This document shows, piece by piece, positions 24,585-63,113 of a stretch of 64,000 bases of DNA. A program made the translations under genes and the position numbers. The stretch spans positions 87,222 to 151,221 of the forward strand of contig OZ246400.1 in assembly GCA_965230935.1 (NCBI GenBank), in the 5' to 3' direction. The notes beneath the pieces were generated by a model, which saw only the letters and a list, made by a program, of their open reading frames with translations, made no database searches and was not told the origin of the DNA. Origin of the DNA: an uncultured Gammaproteobacteria bacterium (GTDB lineage: Bacteria; Patescibacteriota; Patescibacteriia; Magasanikbacterales; JBBTQS01). The number at the start of each line of letters is the position of its first letter. Position 1 is the first letter of the stretch.

Positions 24585-24610
24585 CCCACCTTTGCAATTG
24601 CGAGGTGGGG
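24585..24610. terminator. Hairpin between convergent genes (possible bidirectional terminator)
   Basis: ccccacct-ttgcaattgcg-aggtgggg perfect stem. T-rich runs follow within 15-20 nt on both strands. Confidence 0.35.
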
Positions 24611-24637
24611 CTATGGTTGTGTGTTGTTTTTGAAGTC

Positions 24638-25219
24638 TCAGTCGCGCTTAAGCTGGATGATCAGCGCGATGCTGCCGTTGCCGACGATGCCGTTGGCGAT
24701 GGGATGAACCAGCTCGAGCCAGCTCCCCTCACCCCAGTCGATGATGATGGCGATCACCACGAGCGTGTAGGCCAGAACCGCGAGGTTCCACGGCGGCGCT
24801 TTCTCCTTCGCGTCCTTGAACAGGAGCCCGAATGCGGTCGGGATGAAGGAAATCACGTAGATCACCTGTAGTAGGATGTTCGCCGTGATGGCATCACCCG
24901 TGATCTTCCATACCACACCCACTAGCAGGCAGAGGGTGCCACACACGATCTCGGTCCAGCCGAGATCCCCGAACTTACCCTTTCGCAGGGCGTAGAAGAT
25001 CGCGGAAAGACCAACTGCGGCAAAACCTGTGATTGCCCACTCGAAGTAGTTGCCACGCACCACAACGAAGTACGAAACTGCGTTCATGATACCCAGCACC
25101 AGCCAGATGAGCCACGTGGCAGGGTTGGGTGTCGAGTGGCCTTTGGCCACCTGACGGTAGTACATGACGATGACCGCGCAGATGCACAGACTCGCCAGAA
25201 TGGAAAGAACGTGTGCCAT
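24638..25219 (-). CDS. Hypothetical polytopic membrane protein (GC-rich island)
   Basis: 193 aa with five or six TM helices. GC-rich codon usage distinct from the surrounding genes. Confidence 0.55.
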   Translation of the reverse strand: MAHVLSILASLCICAVIVMYYRQVAKGHSTPNPATWLIWLVLGIMNAVSYFVVVRGNYFEWAITGFAAVGLSAIFYALRKGKFGDLGWTEIVCGTLCLLVGVVWKITGDAITANILLQVIYVISFIPTAFGLLFKDAKEKAPPWNLAVLAYTLVVIAIIIDWGEGSWLELVHPIANGIVGNGSIALIIQLKRD

Positions 25220-25232
25220 TGTCGGCCTCCTT

Positions 25233-25520
25233 CTACGTACCGTACCTGAAGTACAGAATCAGTGAGATCACGATGAGGTTGATCAGTGCGCTCAGTCCCA
25301 GGCACACCAGCAGCACGTTGTTGCGCTTGAAGAACCCGTCGAGTGCGAACGCGATTTGCGTGCTGAGGTAGATCAGGAACATGGGCACCGAGAGCCCCTC
25401 GGTCACTTGCGTGGTGATGAGCTTCCAGAGCTGCGGTAGCATGGCAGTCACGTTGACAAAGCCGAAACTCCAGATTACCCATGGCCATCGTATTTTCGCC
25501 GCAAATTCTTCACGTGTCAT
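25233..25520 (-). CDS. PQ-loop / SemiSWEET-like small membrane transporter
   Basis: About 95 aa with 3 TM helices and a PQ-loop signature (MLPQLWKLITTQ). GGAGG sits 6 nt upstream of the ATG at 25520. The ORF-track start at 25694 is too early and would overlap the tRNA flank. Confidence 0.6.
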   Translation of the reverse strand: MTREEFAAKIRWPWVIWSFGFVNVTAMLPQLWKLITTQVTEGLSVPMFLIYLSTQIAFALDGFFKRNNVLLVCLGLSALINLIVISLILYFRYGT

Positions 25521-25697
25521 GGTAACCCTCCTCGGCCAGACGTGAGGCTTTAATGTAGTAAATATTAGGGATTTTGTCAATGATATTAAGTCGGCTGGGG
25601 CAACGCTCGTTTCACTCGCTAGATGCTCACTTCGTTCGCAAGCGAACCCAATCCAGCTTTGCTGGATGTGGGTTCTCGCCAAACAGACTAACAAAAG

Positions 25698-25722
25698 AAA
25701 ACACCCCTAATGGGGTGTTTTC
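25698..25722 (-). terminator. Hairpin terminator downstream of tRNA-Lys
   Basis: aaaacacccc-taat-ggggtgtttt perfect stem flanked by A/T runs on both sides. Confidence 0.5.
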
Positions 25723-25727
25723 TTTTG

Positions 25728-25800
25728 TGGGTCGGCTGGGGCTCGAACCCAGGACCGTCAGCTTAAAAGGCTGCTGCTCTACCAGCTGAGCTACCGACCC
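25728..25800 (-). tRNA. tRNA-Lys (anticodon TTT)
   Basis: Reverse complement GGGTCGGTAGCTCAGCTGGTAGAGCAGCAGCCTTTTAAGCTGACGGTCCTGGGTTCGAGCCCCAGCCGACCCA folds as a cloverleaf with anticodon loop CTTTTAA. Confidence 0.9.
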
Positions 25801-37622: not shown

Positions 37623-37730
37623 GTAATTGTAGAAATAGCTGAAAAACCCAGTGTTTTACTGGGTTTTTCTTATTTTAGGTAAATTTTTGTATCTGTGTTT
37701 TTTCTTACTATTTAGAGTGTTTTGAAGGAC

Positions 37731-37759
37731 TTGACAAAACCATTCATATGTGCTATAGT
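37731..37759 (+). promoter_or_regulatory. Near-consensus sigma70 promoter driving the non-coding GC-rich unit
   Basis: TTGACA, a 17-bp spacer (aaaccattcatatgtgc), then TATAGT. Predicted transcription start near 37766. Confidence 0.6.
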
Positions 37760-37765
37760 ACGTCA

Positions 37766-38759
37766 GTTCGAGGATCGGTGGGATGCAGGTGTGGCCCGAA
37801 GGGGGCAGCCTGATGACCGATTGCTCGAAGATCCCTGCTGTTCATGGCGGGCTGACCATTGCGGAACGAGTGCGAAATTTCAACGAGGCGCCGAAAGGAG
37901 CCACCAAGCACTTCACCGCGTGCGTGCAGTTTCCGTCCCCCGAGCAGGGAAAACGATGTCTTGCCAAGTGACCCCTTCTGGGCGTTGGTATGGATCGGGG
38001 CATCGTTCTGGTAGGCCGTTTCCGTACAGAAAATCCAGCTGGTGACGGTTGTCGGTCGGACCACGCAGATCCAGAGTAAGGTGAAGTAAGAGGTTAAACA
38101 CTGCCCCTCAAACTTCAGACCAGCTTTACTCGTTGAGAGCGCAGGGGTTCACCCGTGGAACGGTGATCGGCCTTGCTTCCTAGCGGCCTCCGGGGCGCGA
38201 CAATGGACTCAATAAATGCAGAATGGGAAACCTACGGAGAGTTGGCGCTGGTCACTGCTAGTCAACCCAACCGTAGGGGACTCCTCCTGTAAAAGTGATG
38301 TATCTTGATTGGTTGCGGCGCGGAAATAAGCACCCCGTGCGAGCCAGGACGGATAGAACGATGAATCCAGAAATCTCCACTGTGCTGCCGCCGGGTAGCT
38401 CGCGCAAGCGAAAAAGCAGTTATGGGATCGTTCGCATCACAGCAGTAGTACCCAATGCAAGGTTGAGAGACCCTATGGGATGCTGTAAAGAGAGGTTGGG
38501 GTCGAAGGTGTGTCCTCGCGGATCCAACTTTGACCGTGTTCGCCATTTTCTAAAGGGAGTTTCATCTTGTTTTCAAGACAGGGTGTAACTCCTAGCTGGG
38601 GGGGGATCAATGAAGCGCCGCGACACCGCTTCTCCCCCAATCCCAGTGTCAACGATTACTGACCAAGCCCGAAACAGACGGGAGGTCGGCGACCAGCAGA
38701 TTACCATATAGTTTCGCGAGGGCGGAGTTATCACTGGACAACCAATCTGCTGGTCGTTT
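37766..38759 (+). ncRNA. Candidate large (about 1 kb) structured non-coding RNA of unknown family
   Basis: GC-rich (well above the flanking DNA). No ORF longer than 107 codons on either strand, and the longest ORFs are Arg-rich with no Shine-Dalgarno sequence. Many GNRA-like tetraloops on short stems (cgcGCAAgcg, ccGAAAgg, cccGAAGggg). Nested helices such as ctggggggggatcaatGAAGCGccgcgacacCGCTTCtcccccaatcccag. A 12-bp long-range stem gaccagcagatt/aatctgctggtc is followed by gtttt as a terminator. Confidence 0.5.
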
Positions 38760-38806
38760 TAATTTTGTCCAATTTTCCTTGACAAGTTTTTAAAAGTGCG
38801 TCATGC

Positions 38807-39034
38807 TTGATATATACAAGCTTTTCTTGTTTTGTATTTGGTATGCCTATTCCAAAACTCCATGCAAAACAGGACGATTTGCTCCGTCGTGAGCGTATAG
38901 AGAAAGAGATGATCGATCAGTATTTACGTCGTGATGATGTAAAACCGGCTCGATATCGGTTTAGTGTGCGTGGCGCTCGCCAGGCGATTGCAGATAGTTC
39001 TCCTACTGAATATTTCCGCACCCATGGGGATTAG
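38807..39034 (+). CDS. Small hypothetical protein
   Basis: A 63-75 codon ORF between the ncRNA terminator and dusB. Charged and helical. Weak support. Confidence 0.25.
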   Translation: MIYTSFSCFVFGMPIPKLHAKQDDLLRRERIEKEMIDQYLRRDDVKPARYRFSVRGARQAIADSSPTEYFRTHGD

Positions 39035-39112
39035 CTTTAGGTTGCCTGATTCGTCTTTTGTAATAGACAAGTATTGAAAATCTGTTATCATAGCCCGAAA
39101 GGGCTTATTGTT

Positions 39113-50114: not shown

Positions 50115-51404
50115 ATGAGTATTCAAGTATTACGCAACATTAGGCAGTGTGTTGATGCATGGGAAATCCGGTGGTATCACCATGTATTTATTTTTGTAAT
50201 CGCATTTGTGCTGATTGTCTCACGACGCCCAGATGTAATACTTCATGCCCAATTTTGGGCAGAAGATGGTCGGGTATGGTTTCAACAAGCGTACAATAGT
50301 GGATTTTTTGAAGCACTCCTCACTCCACACACCGGATACTTCCAGACCTTTTCACGAATCTCAGCTGGGGTAGCGCAATTGGTTCCTTTGGTGTTTGCTC
50401 CCTTGGTATTTAATCTTCTTGCAATCGTGATCAAGATTCTCCCAATTCATTTACTCTTTTCAAAACGATTTTCCAAACTCATCCCAAGTGTTTCGACTCA
50501 ATTGTTGATTAGCTTGCTTTATATCGGTTTGCCAAATACTACAGAAGTTTTTGTAAATGTTACTAACACACATTGGTATCTTGCACTCATTGCATTTATG
50601 ATCATTGTTGCCGAGGTGTCAAAGACAATTTGGGGGAAGATTGGTGACGTTGTGTTGCTTGCCCTTTCAGGATTAAGTGGTCCATTTGTGATTTTATTGT
50701 TTCCAGTTGCGCTGGTGCGCTGGTTGGTAAAGAAAGATAGGGCATTTTTGTGGTCTTTTGTCATTATTGTGCTGTGTGCTGTTATCCAAGGGTATTTTAT
50801 TGTACAGACTGCTGTAGATACGCGATCGTCTATGACACTTGGTGCCTCAGTGGGATGGTTTGTAAAAATTGTTTCTGGACAAATCATGATCGCAGCACTC
50901 GTTGGGAAAAAGGGATTTGAATATCTTTATCGCCATGGGGCACTCACTAATCTAGTGTATACTTTGGTATTTTTGTTTGGATTGATTCCTGTTGCGTATA
51001 CGATGCTCAAAGCACGATGGGAGGCGAAGATGTTTGTTGTGTTTGGCACTCTTGTTTTAATAGTATCACTTGCGAAACCGATGGTAAGTCTTACCGAACC
51101 GCAATGGCCAATTATGAGTATTCCAGGAGCTGCAACGCGGTATTGGTTTATTCCAATAGTTGCATTCGTTGGTTCTGTATTGGTTATGGCACATCTTGTG
51201 CGAAAACGATATCTCAAAATACTCTTAACTATCAGTGTGACTGTAATGCTAGGGGTTGGTGTGTTGTGGGACTGGCGTCACGCACCATGGGAAGATCTGC
51301 AATATCGATCACATATTCAACAGTTTGAACAGGCTCACTCTGGGGAGGTATTTCATGTCCCAATCCACCCCAAAGGGTGGAATATGAGTTTAATACGACG
51401 ATAG
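50115..51404 (+). CDS. Large polytopic membrane protein (possible GT-C-like glycosyl/mannosyltransferase)
   Basis: 429 aa with more than 10 TM helices. Assignment is by architecture only. Confidence 0.4.
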   Translation: MSIQVLRNIRQCVDAWEIRWYHHVFIFVIAFVLIVSRRPDVILHAQFWAEDGRVWFQQAYNSGFFEALLTPHTGYFQTFSRISAGVAQLVPLVFAPLVFNLLAIVIKILPIHLLFSKRFSKLIPSVSTQLLISLLYIGLPNTTEVFVNVTNTHWYLALIAFMIIVAEVSKTIWGKIGDVVLLALSGLSGPFVILLFPVALVRWLVKKDRAFLWSFVIIVLCAVIQGYFIVQTAVDTRSSMTLGASVGWFVKIVSGQIMIAALVGKKGFEYLYRHGALTNLVYTLVFLFGLIPVAYTMLKARWEAKMFVVFGTLVLIVSLAKPMVSLTEPQWPIMSIPGAATRYWFIPIVAFVGSVLVMAHLVRKRYLKILLTISVTVMLGVGVLWDWRHAPWEDLQYRSHIQQFEQAHSGEVFHVPIHPKGWNMSLIRR

Positions 51405-51423
51405 AACCCTCTTTACTTAATTA

Positions 51424-51501
51424 ATATAACCAAAACCTCCCACAAGGGGAGGATTTTGGTTATTGCTCACTATCGTGAAGGTTGTTCGAACAGGGTTTTA
51501 C
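51424..51501 (+). repeat. Repeat family copy 1 (hairpin plus U-tract, then conserved 35-bp core)
   Basis: atataaccaaaacctcccacaaggggaggattttggttatTGCTCACTATCGTGAAGGTTGTTCGAACAGGGTTTTAC. It is about 90% identical over roughly 80 bp to copy 2. Confidence 0.8.
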
Positions 51502-51698
51502 TTAGAAAGCAGCTGAAAAGTTGTATTTTTTATATCTAAAATTAAGTTATGACACTCTTGACAAAAAAGCGCTTTTGTGGTAGTTTAATTAGTTCTCCAG
51601 CCAGGAAGAGCAGATGAATGACGCACCTCCTTAACGTGCAAAAAAACAAAAAATCATTCAACTGTTTCTTTAACCCACATGGACTAAGGAGGTCTGCG

Positions 51699-52121
51699 AT
51701 GGGGTATGTTCCTGGTAGGAGTTACACGGGTGTTTCTGTGGTCGTTGATTCGAAGGGGTTGCGTTTCATCTTGCTTTCGAGCAAGGAGGATGCGTGGCAC
51801 TTCCAGCGGCAGTGGTTTGCGCGTAGAGAGGATTATGGCTGCTGCCGTAACCTCTGTTACGACATTAGTGTCAGAGCTGTCGATGGGGAGGAGCGAACTG
51901 ACGATTTGGTGGGTTCTGAGTTCATGCTCAGAGAGTGCCATAGCGATTCGCCTATTCGATTTTCTGATGTCCGAGTCAATCTCAATGCCAATGGGGAGCT
52001 CTTCCTCGTGGTGGTGGGATCGCAGGCTCGAGCGTTCTCTTCTCTGGATCGAGATGGTCATGGGCAGCTGCTTCCTGGTAGGGACGGCAGCCCGGACATC
52101 GCGGTTCTTCACTACTACTAA
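51699..52121 (+). CDS. Hypothetical protein (GC-enriched cassette gene)
   Basis: Strong Shine-Dalgarno AAGGAGG 6 nt upstream of the ATG at 51699. A TTGACA-17-TAGTTT promoter lies upstream (51558). Length 140 aa, no recognised domain. Confidence 0.55.
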   Translation: MGYVPGRSYTGVSVVVDSKGLRFILLSSKEDAWHFQRQWFARREDYGCCRNLCYDISVRAVDGEERTDDLVGSEFMLRECHSDSPIRFSDVRVNLNANGELFLVVVGSQARAFSSLDRDGHGQLLPGRDGSPDIAVLHYY

Positions 52122-52258
52122 CTACTTAAAGGCTCTGGTGCAACGGACGTTGTGTCGGGGCCTTTCGATTTGTGACAAATATGAAAGAGAGGATAAGCAA
52201 AACCTCGATAGGTGATTATCGAGGCTGCGTGGTAAGTTGGTTGAATCCGCGGCGCACG

Positions 52259-52972
52259 TTAGGTGGTATCTTCGGGAAAGATGGTTCCGTACACCTCCAG
52301 ACAGCTCTCTCTAACCTCCCTGTACATCGGATTTTCTCCCGTGAGATCATCCTGAAAAGGTGGTTCAAACGCACCCATGAAGAGCTCTGCTTTACGTTGG
52401 CCAGAGCGCAGCAGCGCCGACAAGTAATCGTAATCTTCCAGCCCAAATGTGGACATGTCATCATGGATCTGTGCGAGCGTCGTACCGATCTCTATGTGAA
52501 GTCCTCGAAGCCCTTCGATTGTACAGCGCATGACACATGCAGGATGTGCGCGATGGTAGTAGTTGTGGACAATCAGGCTCCAGAGCATGTCTTTCCCATC
52601 GATTGGTGCAGAGCTTTCACGCGCAGCCACCTCGCAGCTGATGGGTTCCGGGGGCAAATCATTCCCGTAGATGATCGTGGTGAGGTGGGTGAGAGCATCA
52701 TGGAACGGATAGTTTGCCGGCTCAACGCTCGCATCGTCCTCGTGCAGGTTGCCAAACACAGCATTGATACAGTCGTTCAGATTTTCAGCTACCAGACTGC
52801 GAATGTGTGGGGACGACAAGCGAGACAGGGCATCCCTGCACGCACGAACTCGGCGGTGGTAGTACTGATGTGCCAAAGCCGCAACGCACAGGTGAATTTT
52901 ACTGTTGTGGTTTTGGAAGATCATGCGCGCTCCTGCGCATGAAAGACGTTGGATGTCTTTTTCGATACGCAA
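52259..52972 (-). CDS. Hypothetical protein with internally duplicated H-x-YYHR motif (GC-enriched cassette gene)
   Basis: 237 aa. AHQYYHRRVRAC and VHNYYHRAHPAC suggest an internal duplication. Convergent with the previous gene. Confidence 0.45.
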   Translation of the reverse strand: MRIEKDIQRLSCAGARMIFQNHNSKIHLCVAALAHQYYHRRVRACRDALSRLSSPHIRSLVAENLNDCINAVFGNLHEDDASVEPANYPFHDALTHLTTIIYGNDLPPEPISCEVAARESSAPIDGKDMLWSLIVHNYYHRAHPACVMRCTIEGLRGLHIEIGTTLAQIHDDMSTFGLEDYDYLSALLRSGQRKAELFMGAFEPPFQDDLTGENPMYREVRESCLEVYGTIFPEDTT

Positions 52973-53097
52973 GTCGCGCCTCCTTTACTGGGAGTAGGGA
53001 ATCATCTTTATAGATGTGTGTCAAATTTTAATTAGTGGAAAATAAATAATTTGAACAGACGTTCGCTTTGTTCGCTAGGATTCAAATCAGCTCTCAA

Positions 53098-53176
53098 ATA
53101 TAACCAAAACCCTCCCACAAGGGGAGGATTTTTGGTGTATGCTCACTATCGTGAAGGATGTTAGAACTGGATTTTC
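53098..53176 (+). repeat. Repeat family copy 2
   Basis: aatataaccaaaaccctcccacaaggggaggatttttggtgtaTGCTCACTATCGTGAAGGATGTTAGAACTGGATTTTC. Confidence 0.8.
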
Positions 53177-53222
53177 TCTTGCGTGATGATCATGCTAAAC
53201 TATCCTTAGTTTATTTTGTCAT

Positions 53223-54326
53223 ATGAAAGAAAAATACATACCATCAGCAGCAGAAATTGAAAGAGCTGAGAGCATGATGACTCCTCAGCAGCGTGAAATG
53301 TCAGAAAAGCGGGCCAGATTTAAATTCCAAGAGCGGGATGCTTTTGATGATTTTATGGTACATATTAGTCAGTCAGGAGAGCGGCGAGAGGCGACCGACC
53401 AGGAAAAGGCACGGATGGACAAGAATTTTGCAAAGCTGTGGGAAGTATTAGGTGATTCTGAGATCACGTGGTCTGTGGATGGTGCGCTCAATATATCAGT
53501 ACTACAAGGAGATTATATTGGCATTCATAAAGATGTGGACATCAGCATTGGCATGGATGAAATTGATACGTTAGATGGTGTGTTGCTCAAAGGTGGGTAT
53601 GGTTTGTTTTTGTCCACTCGCCACGAAGTGGGTGGTGAGATGAAAACAATCATGGAACGCGTTGACAGTGATAGATTTCGAGCCGCAGATGTTGATAAGC
53701 GACTTATTGCTGCGATAGATAAGGATGGAAAAATACAAGAGGAAGAAACGTTAAACTTTTTAGACATTCATGTAATTGAAAAAAATGAGGGTGGTAATAT
53801 TGTGGGTTCTGCAGGGGTTGAGTTACCTGAGGAGTGGTTTGTGCCAAGACCTTTGGAATTTAGAGGTACTATGGTTAATACGTCTCATCCTGCAAAAGTG
53901 GCGTATTATAAGCTCCATGATACTCGCAATTACGATCGGACAGATCTTAACAAACTTGCTGAGATTGGCGCACTCGGTGTCGACGATGTGGATACGATAG
54001 GCCGACTTATTGAAGAAGAAATTGCTAATCGAGAGCAAAAAGCAGATGGGGTTTTGGATGATGTGGTACAAAGACTAGATCCAAAAATGGACGCAGAGCA
54101 GATTTTCGCATCAGTAATGCAACATCCTATTTTTGTCCAAGCGGTTGAGCGAAATGAAGATGCAACGAGACAGATTCGTGAGTTTTGTAAACAACTTTCA
54201 GCATTAGATGAGTTGACTTTGCCAAATGTAAAAATGGCAGCAAGCGATGTGTTTAGTATGGATGATATGCATAATACCCTCCGAGCAAATGTTGAGGAGT
54301 TAAGAGGGTGGGTTGAGCAGAAATAA
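53223..54326 (+). CDS. Pol-beta-superfamily nucleotidyltransferase related to ANT(2'')/LinB-type enzymes, with N- and C-terminal extensions
   Basis: TWSVDGALNISVLQGDYIGIHKDVDISIG resembles the GGWAIDA...H-DIDL active-site motif of aminoglycoside-2''/lincosamide nucleotidyltransferases, recalled from memory. 367 aa, longer than the resistance enzymes. Confidence 0.5.
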   Translation: MKEKYIPSAAEIERAESMMTPQQREMSEKRARFKFQERDAFDDFMVHISQSGERREATDQEKARMDKNFAKLWEVLGDSEITWSVDGALNISVLQGDYIGIHKDVDISIGMDEIDTLDGVLLKGGYGLFLSTRHEVGGEMKTIMERVDSDRFRAADVDKRLIAAIDKDGKIQEEETLNFLDIHVIEKNEGGNIVGSAGVELPEEWFVPRPLEFRGTMVNTSHPAKVAYYKLHDTRNYDRTDLNKLAEIGALGVDDVDTIGRLIEEEIANREQKADGVLDDVVQRLDPKMDAEQIFASVMQHPIFVQAVERNEDATRQIREFCKQLSALDELTLPNVKMAASDVFSMDDMHNTLRANVEELRGWVEQK

Positions 54327-54338
54327 TACAAAGCGCAC

Positions 54339-54398
54339 CACAGGAGGTGCATTTTTGCATCAGCTCACTATCTGAAGGATGTTAGAACCGGGTTTTGT
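54339..54398 (+). repeat. Repeat family copy 3 (different hairpin, same core)
   Basis: gcaccacaggaggtgcatttttg, then catcaGCTCACTATCTGAAGGATGTTAGAACCGGGTTTTG. Confidence 0.75.
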
Positions 54399-54425
54399 TC
54401 AATTGGTTGAGTTTGGACTGCATTT

Positions 54426-54965
54426 TTATCTTCTGGAGTTTCTATTAATCATCTCGTCTACACGTTTTGGTTCGAGACCAGCTTCGTATGCCTCCTCCTC
54501 AATTTTTGTAATTTCTTTTCTATAGTCTTTTCCAGTGTGTTCGTTCATTTCTCTGTTAAGTGCTGCTTCTGCTTCATTCTCTAGTCTTTTGACTCTTTCT
54601 AGTTTATGTTCTATAAACGTTTCAATAACATTGTAAAGCTCATCTTTTTCGTCTTGTTCAATCTTTCCCTTGGTACCACCAATACGCTCAAAGATTGATC
54701 GAGCCTCATCTATAAGTGTAAAATACTTTTCATTTATTTGAGCTATTTGTCCAGTTAAATAAGATGCATTACCAGGAGTTTTAATTTTGTACTCCTTAAA
54801 ATCATTCATCGTTGGAAATTCCATAACAATGTCATTTATGATTGGCTCTATTTCCAATTCAAATGCGGTAGTAAATTTTTTAAGTTTTTCTTCTATCAAC
54901 CCTCTTTTCTCGTTAGAGAATTTTGATGGTTCGTATTCAGGGATTGTATCAATTAAATTTGTCAT
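54426..54965 (-). CDS. Hypothetical charged helical protein
   Basis: About 180 aa, Glu/Lys-rich, no recognised motif. The start was chosen at MTNLID. Confidence 0.45.
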   Translation of the reverse strand: MTNLIDTIPEYEPSKFSNEKRGLIEEKLKKFTTAFELEIEPIINDIVMEFPTMNDFKEYKIKTPGNASYLTGQIAQINEKYFTLIDEARSIFERIGGTKGKIEQDEKDELYNVIETFIEHKLERVKRLENEAEAALNREMNEHTGKDYRKEITKIEEEAYEAGLEPKRVDEMINRNSRR

Positions 54966-55046
54966 ATTTTTGTAATTCCATCTCTTAAGAGAGTAACACA
55001 AAAATTCTGATACCCATATTTCTTACTTCAAATATTCTTTAAATTT

Positions 55047-55090
55047 ACCAAAAATGCTCACTATTGTGAAGGATGTTCGAACTGTATTTT
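55047..55090 (+). repeat. Repeat family copy 4 (core only, hairpin absent)
   Basis: accaaaaaTGCTCACTATTGTGAAGGATGTTCGAACTGTATTTTG. Confidence 0.75.
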
Positions 55091-55097
55091 GCGGAGT

Positions 55098-55844
55098 TTA
55101 ATCTCTTTTTATCAACGGAATCATGTTAGCAAATATAGATGGCATATCTGTTTTCTTAACAAGGATCAGAAAATTATTCTCATGCATTTGATCATAAACT
55201 GATGGAAACAGCCAGTTTTTTCCATCAACTTTTATCATGAAAACAAATCCTCTTGGCAAGACTATTTCATAGTAACTAGCCTCATCTTTACTTTCTATTA
55301 AGCCACTTATTTGACTAATTCCTCTGACAACCTGGTTTATTTTTTTATCTGTTGACTCTTGCCTATAAACAAAGACTTGTATCTGTCTTGCGGCATCCAA
55401 GTCGTTGTCTCTTATCGCTTTTAAAAAAGTACTTTCATGGTCGCCCAAATCAACACCCCTCGCTTCTTCTCTGGCTGATATGTGAAACCTCCACAATAGC
55501 GATAGAGCGAATAGCTGAAGGTGGTCTAGGTTAGCATTTGGTAAGATTAGATACTCATTGTCTCTTACAGTTGTTCTGGTTGGCTTAGTGGATATCAAAA
55601 TATTTTTCACCGACTCATCATAGACACCGATTTTTGCATCACACTCTCTACACAATATCTTAGCATCATATGAACCATCAGGGCGTTTTTTATTCAGGGT
55701 GTCTTTGCCTACCAAAAGTACGTGGTCGTTACTTGCTTGCTTTTTTTGCTCTTTAATTACCCACTTCGGGAATAGGTGAGATTTGCATCTATTTTTTTCG
55801 TTAATCTTTACATGACACATGCGACAATAAATATCTTCTTCCAT
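55098..55844 (-). CDS. Protein with N-terminal HNH-like zinc-finger nuclease motif
   Basis: CRMCHVKINEKNRCKSHLFPKW...ILCRECDAKIG fits the Cys pair, H-h-h-P, then LCxxC-xxxG pattern of HNH endonucleases. A C-terminal domain of about 170 aa is unknown. Confidence 0.45.
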   Translation of the reverse strand: MEEDIYCRMCHVKINEKNRCKSHLFPKWVIKEQKKQASNDHVLLVGKDTLNKKRPDGSYDAKILCRECDAKIGVYDESVKNILISTKPTRTTVRDNEYLILPNANLDHLQLFALSLLWRFHISAREEARGVDLGDHESTFLKAIRDNDLDAARQIQVFVYRQESTDKKINQVVRGISQISGLIESKDEASYYEIVLPRGFVFMIKVDGKNWLFPSVYDQMHENNFLILVKKTDMPSIFANMIPLIKRD

Positions 55845-57982: not shown

Positions 57983-59392
57983 CTAAAACCTACCTAAGGC
58001 TGTGGCATTTTCAAAAAATGTATCATGGACGACCGCTTTAATTAGTAGGTCGATCTTGTTTGTGATCTCTCCTTCCTCTATCTTTTGCGTTGCATACTCT
58101 TTATCATTCTCACTAAAAATGAAGTGGCCACTTAGTGAGAATGAATTAGTAGGAATAAGAAAGAAATTTTCAATCAAATTATCACCGTCTTTATCTACAC
58201 CAACTCCGAGTATATAGTCATATTTCCTTGCAGAATCGGGTATTGAAAAACACCAGTGCTTATTCCGTGAATTTTCGGCACTATAAAATGCAACACTCGA
58301 ATATACAGGTAAGTTTTTCAATACAAAATAGATACCTTCCTCATCAATTCGTTTCTCAAGTAAATATTCCTCTAGATCTTTTCTTAGTTGCTTTTCGGCT
58401 TTTCTGATTTTGTATACCCCCTTGTTTGAGCGTGAAGGTAGTAGCCAATACAGTTTTTCCTGTACTCTATAAAACATTTCGTCATTGATGATTGGTTCAA
58501 ATGCCTTCTCTACGATTACCCAATCTTTTCTTTGATTTCGTCTGTAGCCACGTTTTAGTTTGTTACTAGTTTTGTTATACAAAAGAGTGCCTCTGTACGT
58601 TTCATTTGAGAGTACGTGAACTATTTTGGAGCTATTCCATTCTCCGCCACCAGGAGATTTAATGCCTTGGTTATCTAGACCACGTGCGATTTCGTTAGGT
58701 GAGGTGTTATCTAAGTCAAAAAGTTTAAAAATCTTTTTAACAGTTTCTGTAGATTCATCATTGGCAGGAACAAAGACTATTCTCCCATTTGCCAGAGCTT
58801 TTCTTTGCCCTTTTTTTAGAATGCGTTCAGGTTGTTTTTGTTCGTCCAAGAGGAGTCTTGCGTAACCATAAGGCGCAATTCCACCGACAGAGTAACCTTT
58901 TGATGTTATCTTGATACATCCATTAAAAACTTTTTTACTCAAATCTCTACTATATTCTGATGCAGATGCACGCTTAAGACTTCTAATCACTCCTGAAAAT
59001 GTCTGGTTGTCATCTTCTTTGGGAAACGGTTCCGAAGTATACAGAACTTTCTTTCCATGCTCTTTACATACAAATTCATAATGACCAGCTTCATTACTGT
59101 CGTCGAATCTGCCCCAACGAGAATCGTCGTATACTAACACATAATCAAACTCAGGTGCGTTGGGATTCTTTACCCAATCATTTATGAGTGATTGAAAACC
59201 AGGTCTGTCAGCCACAAGCCCAGTGTGCTTATCTTCTAAAGAATGGATGATCTCAACGTTATTTTGGTCGGCGTACTCTTTGGCAGCATCTTGCTGAATC
59301 TCAATCGAGTACTCTTGCATATCACGAGTCGACCTGCGACTATATGAAATTGCCTTTTTGGATTGACTCTCTCTAAACAACTGCCTAGCCAT
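57983..59392 (-). CDS. Large serine recombinase (resolvase/integrase family)
   Basis: N-terminal resolvase catalytic motif AISYSRRSTRDMQEYSIEIQ, then a recombinase domain (GYSVGGIAPYGY) and a long C-terminal region. Length 469 aa. Confidence 0.75.
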   Translation of the reverse strand: MARQLFRESQSKKAISYSRRSTRDMQEYSIEIQQDAAKEYADQNNVEIIHSLEDKHTGLVADRPGFQSLINDWVKNPNAPEFDYVLVYDDSRWGRFDDSNEAGHYEFVCKEHGKKVLYTSEPFPKEDDNQTFSGVIRSLKRASASEYSRDLSKKVFNGCIKITSKGYSVGGIAPYGYARLLLDEQKQPERILKKGQRKALANGRIVFVPANDESTETVKKIFKLFDLDNTSPNEIARGLDNQGIKSPGGGEWNSSKIVHVLSNETYRGTLLYNKTSNKLKRGYRRNQRKDWVIVEKAFEPIINDEMFYRVQEKLYWLLPSRSNKGVYKIRKAEKQLRKDLEEYLLEKRIDEEGIYFVLKNLPVYSSVAFYSAENSRNKHWCFSIPDSARKYDYILGVGVDKDGDNLIENFFLIPTNSFSLSGHFIFSENDKEYATQKIEEGEITNKIDLLIKAVVHDTFFENATALGRF

Positions 59393-59396
59393 ACTC

Positions 59397-60341
59397 TTAC
59401 AGCACTGTGTCGGTTACTTCTTTCAACTCAGAGAGGGCAACTTTCTCTTTTTCCTCGAAGCCCTTACCTTTTTGGAGTCTTTTTGCTATGGATCGGGTCA
59501 ATTCCTCAATTTGCAATGAGAGACCTGACAAGATAGTATTTTCAGCGAGTTGCTTAACTCCCATGTCGTCATTTTTCAAGAACTGTAATAGCTCTTTCTT
59601 GTTGGCTTCTGTGCGCTTCACAACGCGGCTGATCGTTCGATATTCCTTTGCTGAGTTAATTACCTCATGTCGTGTTTTGTAAAAAATGCGATCTACGACA
59701 TCTTTAATCTTAAACTCGTCTATGTCTCGAATTTTCGGGTATAGTTTTACGAATTCAACTATGTAGGATTCCTCATCGAGAAGTTCGTATTTCCTTAGAA
59801 GGTTCATGTACCTCTCTTCAATCTTTTTTAGATTAAGTGAATTCGTAACAACAGTGCTGGACATGTTAAGTGCTTTTGCTATTTCCTTAGGCTTCATGCC
59901 TGTTTCTTCGCGGATAGTGTTTAGTGCAGCAGAACGCTCTAAAGGTTTCCAAGAGCGTCTGTTGTTCTGTGCTTCATATCTGATCAATTCCAAATCACCC
60001 TTACTTGTATTTTTAGGTAAGACCTTACATGCAAGTTCTTCAATTTTTAGCTTCTTGGCAGAGCGAAATCTGCGATGACCATCTAAGATGAGGTAGGTAT
60101 CATTGCCTCTATCCAGTACCAGCAAATCTCGAAGAACACCCCATTTTTTGATGGATTCCAAAATTCTATTTTTATCTCCGTCAAGACCGAAGTCTCTTCG
60201 TGGTTGCTTCTTGTCTTCCACTAACTGCGAAGTTTTGAGTATTTTTTGCTTGATAACTTTTTCATTCATAGAAAACTCTTTTGAACGTAACTTCCTTCTT
60301 GGATTAGGAAAAACCCTATCATAAGGGTTCAAAAAAGTCAA
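59397..60341 (-). CDS. ParB-like nuclease/partition domain protein
   Basis: LILDGHRRFRSA matches the ParB/Srx GxxR-DGHHR-type motif. Possible HTH in the middle. The start is ambiguous (TTG at 60341 or ATG at 60269). Confidence 0.6.
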   Translation of the reverse strand: MTFLNPYDRVFPNPRRKLRSKEFSMNEKVIKQKILKTSQLVEDKKQPRRDFGLDGDKNRILESIKKWGVLRDLLVLDRGNDTYLILDGHRRFRSAKKLKIEELACKVLPKNTSKGDLELIRYEAQNNRRSWKPLERSAALNTIREETGMKPKEIAKALNMSSTVVTNSLNLKKIEERYMNLLRKYELLDEESYIVEFVKLYPKIRDIDEFKIKDVVDRIFYKTRHEVINSAKEYRTISRVVKRTEANKKELLQFLKNDDMGVKQLAENTILSGLSLQIEELTRSIAKRLQKGKGFEEKEKVALSELKEVTDTVL

Positions 60342-61345: not shown

Positions 61346-62101
61346 ATGCAATACTGGATTCGTATGCATAAAGATGATGATACAAAAATAAGGCAGGAGG
61401 CCTATACTATTTTGAGGAAGATGGTTGATATCGTCGAGAATGAACAGTGGTCTCTGGTTTTACTTCCAGAAGCGAATGGTGTGGTTGTCACTGGCGATAG
61501 TTTGGTCCTACAGCATGGCTATACAATTCAGCATGAATTTGATAGTGCAGGAGTCGTAAGCTATGTGAATGATTACGTGGATGGGATCAGTAAGCTAAAT
61601 GAGCTTTCATTTGTTACAACAACATTGGTGGATATTAGTGATCGTCCGATGACTTCCCCGACCCTCAAGTACAATTGCAATTTCCAGATTTCCGATATGA
61701 GAAAAGCAAAAGAGAAGTTAAGGGGTTTAAGCAGAGAGTACATTTCAAAAATATCTGATGAGAGCGGAGATGGTAATCGGGCTATTGAAGTCTATTACAT
61801 TCCAAAAAAACGTAATGGGTATGTTCATTTCAAAGGTGAAGAGATTATGCGTTTCGGTGGTCGCAGAGGGTTAATCCTTGAATTCTTTTTCCAGAGAAGA
61901 GAAACTAATAGATATTATTCTGCATACGATATGGCGGCAGCGAGCATAAACATAACACCTGGAAGGCTCAGCGATGAGATAAAGGAAATTAACAGGCTGT
62001 TTTGGCGTGAAACAGATATTGAGATGTTGATTCAAAGTAGGCGCTATTGCGAGGGTCGAGAGTTGCCGAAAAAATTGGACGAGTATCGTTGGGCGCTTTA
62101 A
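61346..62101 (+). CDS. Hypothetical protein
   Basis: About 250 aa, no recognised motif. The ATG at 61346 is preferred over the TTG at 61328. Confidence 0.45.
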   Translation: MQYWIRMHKDDDTKIRQEAYTILRKMVDIVENEQWSLVLLPEANGVVVTGDSLVLQHGYTIQHEFDSAGVVSYVNDYVDGISKLNELSFVTTTLVDISDRPMTSPTLKYNCNFQISDMRKAKEKLRGLSREYISKISDESGDGNRAIEVYYIPKKRNGYVHFKGEEIMRFGGRRGLILEFFFQRRETNRYYSAYDMAAASINITPGRLSDEIKEINRLFWRETDIEMLIQSRRYCEGRELPKKLDEYRWAL

Positions 62102-62402: not shown

Positions 62403-63113
62403 ATGGTACAGGAAACTCACACAATTCAAGATCCAAGGACACGCAGTGCACGGAGAAAATTGCCAGAGACAGAATTCCTTTGGTCGTGGCGCTTGTCACG
62501 TGGATATTTGTACGAGACTGATCAGGAAATTGAGCAGTCGGAGAATACAGTGGGGCATTTGGAAAAAATACGAAAAAAGAATCGGCGCAGATTCACAGAC
62601 AGGGAATTATTTGCCTTGTTTCCTGAGGCAAAGGACATGATTTTGGAACTTATAACCACAATGTTGGTGGAGCGGAAGTCAGTTGTTGCAAGGATCAAGG
62701 TTGCACTTAGAAACGCTACTACGGAGGATCAGCGTTCGAGAGTAAGGCTTGAGGGAGAGAGGAAGTTAAAAGAGGTGGATGGTCATCTAAATCGACTAAG
62801 GAGGCAATGGCGTTTCATCAAATATGAGAAGCCTGACAAAACTGGGTCTGATCGCATTGATCAGGCGGCCATAGAGCAAGCAAAAGAGGTACCAATACAA
62901 GATTTCTTGGACGTTGAGTTCAAGCAAGTTGGAAATAAGCTTCTCGCGTCTTGTCCACTGCATAATGAACGGACACCCTCTTTCTATGTGTATCAAGATA
63001 CAAATACCGCGTGGTGTTATGGGTGCCAGCAAGGTGGTGATTCAATCACAATTGCAAAGTTGACACATGGGTATTCATTTCAGGAGGCCGTGGCCTTCCT
63101 AATAAACAAGTAA
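62403..63113 (+). CDS. Protein with C-terminal CHC2 primase-type zinc finger
   Basis: CPLHNERTPSFYVYQDTNTAWCYGCQQGGDSI matches the DnaG/P4-alpha CHC2 zinc-ribbon pattern CP.H.E.TPSF...C.GC..GGD. No TOPRIM domain within the 236 aa. Confidence 0.55.
   Translation: MVQETHTIQDPRTRSARRKLPETEFLWSWRLSRGYLYETDQEIEQSENTVGHLEKIRKKNRRRFTDRELFALFPEAKDMILELITTMLVERKSVVARIKVALRNATTEDQRSRVRLEGERKLKEVDGHLNRLRRQWRFIKYEKPDKTGSDRIDQAAIEQAKEVPIQDFLDVEFKQVGNKLLASCPLHNERTPSFYVYQDTNTAWCYGCQQGGDSITIAKLTHGYSFQEAVAFLINK

Follow-up and report, generated by a model that had tools for sequence, protein, structure and literature searches.

Our study identified a ~1.6-kb insert (51500-53096) that carries two convergent genes between two direct copies of a 77-79-nt sequence and that, on balance, is probably a horizontally acquired, self-contained, moron-like cargo module in the accessory arm of a mobile element. 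The insert lies in the 64-kb window, by which we mean the whole stretch of DNA analysed. It contains two independent convergent transcription units, gene A on the plus strand and gene B on the minus strand. The flanking repeats, the composition of the insert, the coding signals of both genes and the neighbourhood in which they are found all bear on this reading, and each of them is presented below.

As stated in the initial annotation, the segment is compositionally distinct: its GC content is 0.529 (in a 1300-nt sub-window at 51701), compared with a mean of 0.438 (sd 0.037) for the window, which corresponds to z = 2.5 and to the top 1.5%, although it is only one of five patches with a GC content of at least 0.50. 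At the codon level, the GC3 of genes A and B is 0.57-0.59 vs 0.27-0.47 in the neighbouring genes, and the K/(K+R) ratio of the pair (0.125 and 0.19) lies below the minimum of 0.286 found among the 37 other genes of the window. In addition, the arrangement of AAGGAGG, 6 nt and a start codon occurs in the 64 kb only in gene A, in gene B and in one other GC-rich ORF. The margins of the insert (51500-51690 and 52990-53096) have ~30% GC and are more AT-rich than the window average; consequently, the insert may be a mosaic and not one imported block. An assembly artefact is ruled out, because the junctions are 100% identical in MEGAHIT and Logan contigs from runs ERR2281800, ERR2281801, and ERR2281805. 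Composition and gene signals, taken together, show the A/B segment to be, as judged from its sequence, foreign DNA from a GC-richer donor with two real protein-coding genes.

Gene A (51699-52121, plus strand) encodes the 140-aa protein of the initial annotation (MGYVPGRSY...HYY), and its ATG is preceded, as reported there, by the sequence AAGGAGG (51686-51692) with a 6-nt spacer. Upstream of it, a promoter-like site can be read from the sequence at 51559-51587 on the plus strand, composed of TTGACA (51559-51564), a 17-nt spacer and TAGTTT (51582-51587); TGG directly precedes the -10. The promoter previously assigned to the segment is present as a sequence, but its -10 is weak, with 3/6 matches to TATAAT, and falls below the threshold of the consensus scan. 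The 5' leader of the gene (51594-51698, plus strand) is structured (RNA fold z = -3.8) and contains an anti-Shine-Dalgarno stretch, CGCACCTCCTTA (51622-51633), which is complementary to the Shine-Dalgarno region of gene A (51685-51698); the leader could mask its own ribosome-binding site, a putative regulatory role. Downstream, an intrinsic terminator at 52129-52171 on the plus strand consists of a 16-bp GC-rich stem followed by TTTCGATTT. Three-base periodicity is present in gene A (p = 5e-5, with 38% G at codon position 1) and absent from its AT-rich leader. Since 19% of the shuffles at this GC content contain an open frame of at least 140 codons, the frame alone is not significant, and the gene A call rests on the Shine-Dalgarno sequence, the terminator and the periodicity. 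The public annotation includes a 167-aa version of this gene that starts at 51618. From its motifs, the product is predicted to be a small alpha/beta protein.

Gene B (52259-52972, minus strand) encodes a protein of 237 aa that starts with TTG at 52972, where AAGGAGG (52985-52979) is located at a 6-nt spacer; an alternative ATG start at 52924 would give 221 aa. Open frames of 237 codons or more were found in only 0.05% of the shuffles, and the three-base periodicity of the gene is significant (p = 2e-5). The internal duplication claimed for this protein was confirmed: its halves align over 67 residues (E = 2e-4) and contain HQYYHRRVRAC and HNYYHRAHPAC, respectively, with the motif H-x-YYHR-x3-AC in each of them, and the duplication exists in the minus frame only. 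The protein is predicted to be all-helical, and its motifs suggest a two-domain helical protein that possibly binds metal via the paired His and Cys residues. The intrinsic terminator of gene B (52201-52226, minus strand) is formed by the stem CCTCGATA...TATCGAGG, followed by TTTTGC on the minus strand. In the region upstream of the gene (53019-53075, minus strand), we read a TTGACA box (53024-53019) and a tandem heptamer, GTTCGCT x2 (53060-53066 and 53069-53075); a good -10 is absent behind the TTGACA, and the consensus scan called no promoter there. The public (ENA) annotation places a plus-strand ORF of 253/256 aa over gene B.

Special attention was given to relatives of the two proteins, and the results agree with the earlier statement that neither of them has a recognisable function. 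Neither A nor B matched any entry in PADLOC, Pfam, NCBIfam, PHROGs, the sequences of the PDB or the fold libraries. The structure prediction and fold search that had been proposed as a check of the initial annotation likewise gave no fold match, with single-sequence AlphaFold pLDDT values of 41 (B) and 59 (A). Gene B had no match among 5.8 billion clustered proteins or, using full HMMER, among 1.84 billion representatives, and a profile built from its two halves had none among the PDB sequences. For gene A, the large protein search recovered no homologue other than its own source protein. Searches with tblastn against phage and plasmid collections returned nothing, as did blastn of the whole insert against plasmids and the pattern-plus-tblastn scans of IMG/VR and JGI metagenomes, which depend on shared 8-residue peptides and so report on close relatives only. 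By sequence inspection, both proteins are acidic and cytosolic-looking, and no signal peptide, membrane helix, nuclease motif or NTase motif could be recognised in either of them. In the cell, the two proteins most likely have a role accessory to the element.

The repeats that bound the insert were found where the initial annotation had placed them, with copy 1 at 51423-51499 and copy 2 at 53097-53175, both on the plus strand. They are not the identical 80-bp sequences described there: their lengths are 77 and 79 nt, and they agree in 72 of 80 aligned columns (90%), with four substitutions and four indel columns. Nor are they a unique pair. All the copies have in common a 35-nt core, GCTCACTATCGTGAAGGATGTTMGAAC...TTTT, which occurs four times on the same strand within 3.7 kb (51.4-55.1 kb), preceded in copies 1-3 by a terminator hairpin. 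In copy 1, the core (51465-51499) follows a bidirectional, terminator-like hairpin (51426-51463; ATAACCAAAACCTCCC / GGGAGG-A-TTTTGGTTAT) that stands directly 3' of a 429-aa gene and gives a DNA fold z of -4.5. In copy 2, a hairpin of the same type (53103-53137) precedes the core (53141-53175), 48 nt upstream of a 367-aa nucleotidyltransferase-like gene. Copy 3 (54330-54396, plus strand) combines an unrelated terminator hairpin (GCACC...GGTGC; fold z = -0.9), located 3' of the 367-aa gene, with a core that has a 1-nt deletion (54363-54396). Copy 4 (55056-55090, plus strand; fold z = +0.4) is a core alone, without a hairpin, situated between the start of a 191-aa and the stop of a 248-aa gene, both on the minus strand. 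The rest of the 64-kb window and the 9 kb that follow it contain no further copies of the core, and shuffles of the window produced no match to it.

The relationships between these copies are informative about their history. The copy-2 hairpin is alike to that of copy 1 at 41 of 43 positions and yet stands where no plus-strand gene ends, which argues that the whole hairpin-plus-core unit was duplicated and that copy 2 is not an independent terminator. A recent target duplication is argued against, because 10% of the positions differ between copies 1 and 2 and their cores are no more similar to each other than to those of copies 3 and 4. Core conservation is even, at 83-91% over all four copies. 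The divergence of copies 1 and 2 leaves room for the core to be some other type of conserved functional element. Since it also marks two further downstream gene boundaries, the core appears to be used repeatedly as a docking or junction sequence by small cargo cassettes, irrespective of the direction of the genes.

We compared the core with several known types of elements. It has neither dyad symmetry nor a significant fold, and searches for it in GTDB genomes, IMG/VR and JGI metagenomes gave neither exact nor degenerate matches; a looser match in IMG/VR was a chance match within a coding region. Rfam returned no match in 51300-55200, even at E values up to 5. A T7-type promoter, suggested by a resemblance to CTCACTAT, was rejected: the window encodes no single-subunit RNA polymerase, and the orientation of the copies is inconsistent with that of the genes (the 888-aa ORF of the window is a P-type ATPase). 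A dif/Xer site was discarded for its missing two-arm symmetry, and a tRNA fragment for the lack of likeness to the tRNA-Gln at the island end. Likewise, the copies are non-palindromic and separated by kilobases, unlike parS sites or iterons; their terminal inverted repeats are unconvincing for a MITE, and a consistent promoter for a minus-strand sRNA is lacking.

The neighbourhood of the insert begins on the left with the 429-aa gene, which encodes a membrane protein without a Pfam family, and continues downstream with the 367-aa gene, whose product is a nucleotidyltransferase-fold protein (Pfam PF10706, E = 4e-7). Farther downstream, we identified a large serine recombinase (57983-59392, minus strand), a ParB-like gene (59397-60341, minus strand) and a primase zinc-ribbon protein (62403-63113, plus strand); beyond the window there follow a DnaB/AAA_25-like helicase, a second large serine recombinase and tRNA-Gln(CTG). 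Both recombinases contain Resolvase and Recombinase domains, and they are found 3-11 kb downstream, together with the replication module. The right end of the element abuts tRNA-Gln(CTG) and dnaX. No Phage_integrase-type match was obtained among the 47 ORFs of the window that were compared with Pfam or among the precomputed Pfam domains of the contig genes to ~73 kb, and no virion genes were identified in the element. Because the recombinases, the ParB-like gene, the primase-helicase pair and tRNA-Gln lie downstream, we read the locus as the cargo arm of an integrated element. On our best reading, this element spans ~15 kb, with its left end undefined, and is integrated beside tRNA-Gln in the small genome of a CPR-type (Magasanikbacteria-like) bacterium. 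Searches of GTDB genomes, IMG/VR, JGI metagenomes, and phage and plasmid collections yielded no related element.

The initial annotation had proposed that the unit was acquired by exchange at the repeats. The foreign composition, the self-containment, the duplicated flanks and the cargo-arm setting support this proposal, all of them circumstantially; against it stand the 90% identity of the repeats, the presence of the core at two further boundaries and the lack of an empty site. The ancestral state would have been a single hairpin-plus-core of ~80 nt between the 429-aa and the 367-aa genes, and the A/B segment would have entered by recombination within this sequence, either from a circular intermediate with one repeat copy or from a donor allele that had these flanks as well; in both cases, the insert would end up with one repeat copy on each side. 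The configuration proposed earlier as a check, in which copies 1 and 2 are fused, was looked up with the exact proteins of gene A and of both flanking genes; the contigs returned all have the same arrangement. Neither an empty site, a circular form nor a relative without the cassette was seen, and every public contig with the locus matches the window at 100% identity. The closest genome that encodes a homologue of the 429-aa protein (46% identity) belongs to Ca. Magasanikbacteria, where ligA is located downstream and synteny is absent. As the only related genome recovered is non-syntenic and no empty site was found, the insertion event is one that we infer and do not observe. We conclude that the acquisition is real but of an ordinary kind, and that the function of the module is not readable from its sequence.

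Several other explanations for the repeats should be considered. They could be expression signals, with the hairpin as a terminator and the core as a promoter, operator or protein-binding site, in which case the A/B segment would have arrived separately and the duplication would be a by-product or the result of gene conversion. The hairpins of copies 1 and 3, which stand directly after plus-strand genes and have terminator scores on both strands, are in line with this, as are the short distance from copy 2 to the 367-aa gene, the TTCACA -35 box that the reverse strand of copy 4 provides to a promoter-like site before the 191-aa gene, and the even conservation of the core, which is expected under selection on a binding site. 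However, all the copies are on one strand while the adjacent genes run in both directions, transcription from copies 3 and 4 would run into real minus-strand genes at their 3' ends, a plausible -10 is present in copy 4 only, and the distance from core to start codon is inconsistent; we therefore regard this explanation as unlikely. Lower still is the probability that we assign to an accretion like that of SCC islands, where the core would be the attachment sequence of one of the element's large serine recombinases and recombinase-less cassettes (the A/B segment and the 367-aa and 191-aa genes) would have been added in turn. In SCC composite islands, imperfect direct repeats delimit successive modules, some of them ccr-less (PMC7029136), and this logic of degenerate direct repeats that mark modules is shared by our locus, where four imperfect same-orientation copies bound three small modules, in the same island as two large serine recombinases and a primase/helicase. 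Nevertheless, in an SCC-type element direct repeats of the integration site would flank every module, both ends of the recombinase-bearing part included, and here neither the right end of the element nor the vicinity of either recombinase gene has a core copy; sequence inspection reveals none of the dyad symmetry expected of serine-recombinase sites. The repeat is also longer (at least 35 nt vs ~18 nt in SCC), the element adjoins tRNA-Gln and is not inserted at the 3' end of rlmH (orfX), and the recombinases are members of the superfamily and not of the Ccr family, with 25-83 bits in the CcrA/B/C models vs cut-offs of 700-900. An integron-type array without integrase (CALIN), in which the repeats would be attC sites and the A/B segment an integron cassette, is the most improbable of all. 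CALINs are common, and they consist of small unrelated cassettes, mostly of unknown function, with repeats of tens of nt (PMC4889954); here, small cassettes are parted by 60-80 nt repeats, and in copies 1 and 2 the hairpin is an imperfect palindrome, with a single bulged base and ...AAC/GTT... as its outer triplets. However, every repeat of such an array should be an attC site, an imperfect R''-L''...L'-R' palindrome that folds into a hairpin with extrahelical bases, and no palindrome of this type is common to the four copies, given that the hairpin of copy 3 is unrelated and copy 4 has none; what all four conserve is the 35-nt core, which is linear, non-palindromic and located outside the hairpin. 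Moreover, no tyrosine or integron integrase was found among the window ORFs scanned or the contig genes to ~73 kb, and very small genomes lack integrons (PMC4889954). Integron cassettes are mostly promoterless single ORFs of uniform orientation; the A/B segment has two convergent genes, with promoter-like signals and terminators of its own, and the cassettes are in mixed orientation. Finally, the core could be the site of an undescribed CPR cassette-capture system, possibly served by the recombinases of the element, with the A/B segment as a captured cassette that encodes a protein pair with new folds. Such a system would work like an integron or an SCC island, but with a linear, non-palindromic site, and we consider it improbable.

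The same applies to two different views of the genes themselves. The A/B segment could be a toxin/immunity or effector/immunity module, as the initial annotation suggested, or another defence module, since its two genes form a small unit in the cargo region of a mobile element, beside a nucleotidyltransferase-fold protein, and the leader of gene A could hide the ribosome-binding site, as happens in some toxin genes. Against this, neither protein has a family, PADLOC or fold match or, by sequence inspection, any toxin-like feature, and the genes converge, each followed by its own terminator; they form neither an operon nor the co-transcribed small pair with family or fold similarity by which a type II toxin-antitoxin system is recognised. 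The toxin/immunity suggestion is thus unsupported, and a defence role is very doubtful. It is also important to consider that one or both ORFs might not be genes, the block being non-coding (structured RNA or decayed DNA), or that the 253/256-aa plus-strand ORF might be the real gene in place of gene B. Open frames are cheap at 53% GC, as the shuffles for gene A illustrate, three overlapping ORFs cover each half, GC by codon position does not separate the strands, the AlphaFold confidence is low, and the ENA gene call preferred the plus-strand ORF. Nonetheless, periodicity is significant in both halves, AAGGAGG with its 6-nt spacer and the terminators are found on the proposed strands only, and the internal duplication belongs to the minus frame. 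The plus-strand ORF, in turn, has no Shine-Dalgarno sequence, contains the terminator hairpin of gene B inside its 5' end, and would give a product rich in R, V, and C, like antisense translations. The probability that one or both ORFs are not genes is consequently slight in our assessment.

The reading that we prefer, a moron-like cargo module, can also be compared with systems already described. In Acinetobacter plasmids, small gene modules, often for toxin-antitoxin or resistance functions, are bounded by pdif sites, which are 28-bp XerC/XerD sites in alternating orientation, and these modules are found in different contexts. Our locus resembles them in its discrete small modules bounded by short sites, and it differs in that the core is not dif-like and all its copies are direct. 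Morons, the Hendrix-type units of 'more DNA' in phages and prophages, have been defined as autonomous units that have a promoter and a factor-independent terminator of their own, differ in composition from their neighbours and are located between genes that lie side by side in related phages (PMC4378225). The A/B segment agrees with this description in its own promoter-like site (with a weak -10), its factor-independent terminators, its unusual composition and its position between two genes that are neighbours in a mobile element. In contrast to the single ORF that is usual in morons, it contains two convergent genes; it is bordered on both sides by a copy of a 77-79-nt sequence that is found again at nearby gene boundaries, and its host element has no recognisable virion genes and so is not shown to be a prophage.

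The presence of one 35-nt sequence at four consecutive gene boundaries, with genes in either direction, may point to a site-directed stacking of cargo cassettes. In addition, no relative of the proteins is detectable among 5.8 billion predicted proteins (A and B) or 1.84 billion cluster representatives (B), and the wrong-strand public call at gene B illustrates how such genes can stay hidden from protein-level surveys. The stacking and the orphan proteins are of modest wider interest, and they address no long-standing open question. If our reading is true, this locus would be a further example of ultra-small CPR genomes that gain foreign genes via the cargo regions of integrated elements, in this case from a GC-richer donor.

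The segment between repeat copies 1 and 2 (51500-53096; hereafter the insert) is compositionally distinct, as the initial annotation had proposed. Its GC content is 52.9% over a 1300-nt interval, compared with a window mean of 43.8% (sd 3.7; z = 2.5, top 1.5%); the GC-rich portion is the coding portion (~51700-53000), and the inner flanks (51500-51600 and 53000-53100) contain only ~30% GC. The two genes of the insert, gene A (51699-52121, plus strand, 140 aa) and gene B (52259-52972, minus strand, 237 aa, TTG start), also deviate in GC3, which is 0.57-0.59 as against 0.27-0.47 in neighbouring genes, and both encode proteins rich in arginine and poor in lysine: K/(K+R) averages 0.525 in 37 other genes of the window and nowhere falls below 0.286 there, whereas A and B reach only 0.125 and 0.19, respectively. 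This GC3 and amino acid usage suggests that the insert came from a donor whose genome is richer in GC.

Several lines of evidence bear on whether A and B are genes. The length of frame A is unremarkable, since an open frame of at least 140 codons is attained in 19% of shuffles at the GC content of the insert; only 0.05% of shuffles reach 237 codons. Three-base periodicity is significant in both halves of the insert (p = 5e-5 and 2e-5), and no significant periodicity was found in the AT-rich leader. The 64-kb window has just three instances of AAGGAGG spaced exactly 6 nt from the start codon of an ORF of 50 aa or more: at gene A (51686-51701, plus strand, ATG at 51699), confirming the Shine-Dalgarno sequence already assigned to this 140-aa frame, at gene B (52970-52985, minus strand, TTG at 52972), and at a 193-aa ORF starting at 25219 (25219-25232); all three of these ORFs are GC-rich. 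Each gene of the insert has its own intrinsic terminator, a 16-bp stem at 52129-52164 followed by a T-run on the plus strand for A, and 52226-52201 followed by TTTTGC on the minus strand for B. From these sequence features, we conclude that A and B are both genuine genes and form two independent convergent transcription units.

The public ENA annotation calls a plus-strand ORF of 253 aa (52172-52942) antisense to gene B, and GC by codon position does not distinguish the two strands at this place. The minus strand is nevertheless favoured as the probable coding strand, because the plus-strand ORF has no Shine-Dalgarno sequence, the gene B terminator hairpin falls within its 5' end, its product is rich in R, V and C, and an internal duplication is found only in the minus frame of gene B when all six frames are compared. 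This duplication, recognized earlier from its HxYYHR motif, holds up over 67 residues (E = 2e-4) and includes HQYYHRRVRAC and HNYYHRAHPAC. As for promoters, the TTGACA-17-TAGTTT site proposed before gene A is present and carries a TG-type extension, but its -10 element is weak. For gene B, a TTGACA box is present and a convincing -10 is lacking. The 5' leader of gene A folds well (z = -3.8), and within it CGCACCTCCTTA (51622-51633) is complementary to the gene's own Shine-Dalgarno region TAAGGAGGTCTGCG (51685-51698), an arrangement that could serve translational masking or regulation. Upstream of the TTGACA box of gene B lies a tandem heptamer, GTTCGCT-tt-GTTCGCT (53060-53075), which may be a regulator binding site; this region has TTGTTCG in common with repeat core copy 1 and TGTTCG with copy 4, maybe by chance.

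The earlier statement that neither protein has a recognizable function agrees with all our sequence, family and fold searches. Gene B had no match among 5.8 billion clustered proteins, among 1.84 billion representatives (full HMMER) or in Pfam, PADLOC, NCBIfam and PHROGs, and nothing was found among PDB sequences, even with a profile of its two halves. Gene A matched only itself, as a 167-aa call in the source genome, and no family was found for it. No relative of either turned up when phage, plasmid, IMG/VR and JGI metagenome DNA was searched in six frames. It is important to consider that neither version of gene B is in a collection of 15 billion proteins and that the gene was not called in the source annotation; therefore, homologues could be hidden in protein databases. 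The single-sequence AlphaFold models are poor (pLDDT 41, all helical, for B; pLDDT 59 and pTM 0.51, with an alpha/beta pattern, for A), and fold searches with them returned only noise. From its motifs alone, the gene B product would consist of two tandem copies of a helical domain, ~100 residues each, in which His and Cys are paired, and it may bind a metal. No result supports the suggestion that A and B constitute a toxin/immunity pair, and their convergent arrangement with separate terminators differs from the usual operon form of such pairs.

The two repeats that border the insert, copy 1 (51423-51499, 77 nt) and copy 2 (53097-53175, 79 nt), are direct repeats and had been described as identical, which they are not: 72 of 80 aligned columns match (90%), with 4 substitutions and 4 indel columns. 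Each is bipartite, consisting of a hairpin followed by a 35-nt core, GCTCACTATCGTGAAGGWTGTTMGAACNGGRTTTT. The hairpin, an A-tract/stem/T-tract structure with intrinsic-terminator scores in both directions, is by sequence inspection exclusive to these two copies, whose hairpins agree at 41 of 43 positions. A mismatch search and an nhmmer profile located the core four times, always on the plus strand: at 51465-51499 (copy 1), 53141-53175 (copy 2), 54363-54396 (copy 3, with a 1-nt deletion) and 55056-55090 (copy 4). The insert is thus flanked by a repeat pair as claimed, but this pair is part of a four-member family situated at consecutive gene boundaries, in the order 429-aa gene (+), copy 1, A (+), B (-), copy 2, 367-aa gene (+), copy 3, 191-aa gene (-), copy 4, 248-aa gene (-). 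At copy 3 the terminator hairpin is an unrelated one, and copy 4 lacks a hairpin. Pairwise core identity is 83-91% for all pairs, copies 1 and 2 being no closer to each other than to copies 3 and 4. No further core was found elsewhere in the window or in the next 9 kb of the source contig, in shuffles of the window, or in 185,579 GTDB species genomes, IMG/VR and JGI metagenomes; neither dyad symmetry nor a fold of its own was found in the core.

Pfam and NCBIfam searches, read together with the source contig's gene table, show that the region to the right of the repeats encodes a large serine recombinase of 469 aa (57983-59392, minus strand), a ParB-like protein (59397-60341, minus strand) and a primase zinc-ribbon protein of only 236 aa (62403-63113, plus strand). 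Beyond the window, within the equivalent of 63118-66590, follow a separate DnaB/AAA_25-type helicase and a second large serine recombinase of 558 aa, the last ~60 nt of whose ORF are overlapped by tRNA-Gln(CTG), with dnaX directly after. Since the left 50 kb is ordinary chromosome (era, ftsW, murG, mraY, pyrG, dus, glycosyltransferases), the recombinases, ParB-like protein, primase, helicase and downstream tRNA-Gln show that the region from ~51.4 kb (an approximate left limit) to ~66.5 kb is an integrated mobile element adjoining a tRNA gene, with the repeat array as its cargo arm. Accessory genes of a typical kind occur in the neighbouring cassettes: one for a protein with a nucleotidyltransferase fold (PF10706, E = 4e-7) and one for a zinc-finger protein that has relatives in PHROGs. 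The 248-aa protein (55098-55844, minus strand) has an N-terminal CxxC...H...CxxC pattern; its matches are to three PHROG families whose function is unknown (best E = 1.7e-12), and none is to a Pfam family. The ORFs scanned include no tyrosine recombinase, and no core copy lies beside either serine recombinase or at the tRNA end.

The A/B locus is present in MEGAHIT and Logan assemblies of several PRJEB17505 runs and in a 931-kb NCBI contig. All contigs that carry it are 100% identical to the window and arranged alike, which led us to reject an assembly chimera; no empty site or variant occurs among them. Several independent assemblies (Logan and MEGAHIT; runs ERR2281800, ERR2281801 and ERR2281805; overlaps 100% identical) have contig breaks at ~51998-52270 in the insert and at ~60330 and ~61770-61914 in the element, which may be due to heterogeneous coverage or strains in the element. 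The homologue of the 429-aa flanking protein in the closest genome, a Candidatus Magasanikbacteria MAG, has 46% identity, which assigns the source to the CPR bacteria; the locus is not syntenic in that MAG.

Fusing copies 1 and 2 would yield the 429-aa gene, terminator hairpin, core, 48 nt and the 367-aa gene, which is the arrangement of gene, hairpin and core seen at copy 3. The copy-2 hairpin, situated beyond the 5' end of gene B, has no plus-strand gene ending before it and so is best explained as a duplicate of that of copy 1. The simplest account, we infer, has a 1676-bp unit, made up of A/B and a single repeat, recombining with a resident hairpin-plus-core copy, either in circular form or through allelic exchange with a donor having the same flanks. 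Acquisition by exchange at the repeats, as initially suggested, is partly supported, by the duplicated hairpin-plus-core and the foreign composition; the imperfect identity of the repeats and the missing empty site weaken it. The core itself behaves like a recurrent junction, because it also bounds two other unrelated cassettes regardless of gene direction. Given that copies 1 and 2 diverge by 10% and that the core is evenly conserved in all four copies, the core may instead be an expression or binding signal. We consider it highly improbable that it marks a new cassette-capture mechanism. The insert is best read as a pair of orphan genes gained by horizontal transfer and lodged in the cargo part of an integrated element.

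Three known systems invite comparison. Morons are defined as units with a promoter and terminator of their own, atypical composition and a location between mobile-element genes (PMC4378225). The A/B unit fits this definition by its promoter-like site and terminators, composition and position, except that it has two genes, that it is known from identical contigs only, and that no virion genes were identified in its host element. In SCC composite islands, modules, some of which have no recombinase, are set off by degenerate direct repeats in the vicinity of large serine recombinases (PMC7029136). The array described here likewise delimits small modules near such recombinases, but the recombinases of the element fall outside the Ccr family, it does not sit in rlmH, and the repeat is absent from its far end. 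The array is similar in layout to an integrase-less integron array (PMC4889954) and unlike it in that an attC structure shared by all copies is lacking, the cassettes face both ways and the A/B cassette has a promoter-like site of its own.

In all, five patches of the window, the insert among them, have a GC of at least 0.50, and foreign GC-rich insertions therefore appear to recur in this 44% GC genome. Patch 1-1253 holds a 401-aa ORF (48-1253; GC3 0.77) with no Pfam family, and patch 24600-25700 holds membrane-protein ORFs at 24638-25219 and 25233-25694 (both minus strand; GC3 0.76 and 0.66), which adjoin tRNA-Lys (25727-25800). A ~1.4-kb block of this GC content (37700-39073), between a lipoprotein-like ORF and dus, has no ORF of 110 aa or more in either orientation, and codon periodicity is absent (p = 0.82). 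It begins with a good promoter, TTGACA (37731-37736)-17-TATAGT (37754-37759); its plus strand folds better than shuffles (z = -3.2) and its minus strand does not (z = -1.3), and it has no Rfam match at gathering or E-value thresholds and no phage match. This block is a candidate large structured non-coding RNA, possibly of more interest than the A/B insert. As for the insert, protein-level surveys would miss gene B and any similarly mis-called relatives, and the 35-nt core that recurs at the junctions is the only feature for which additional study might be worthwhile.
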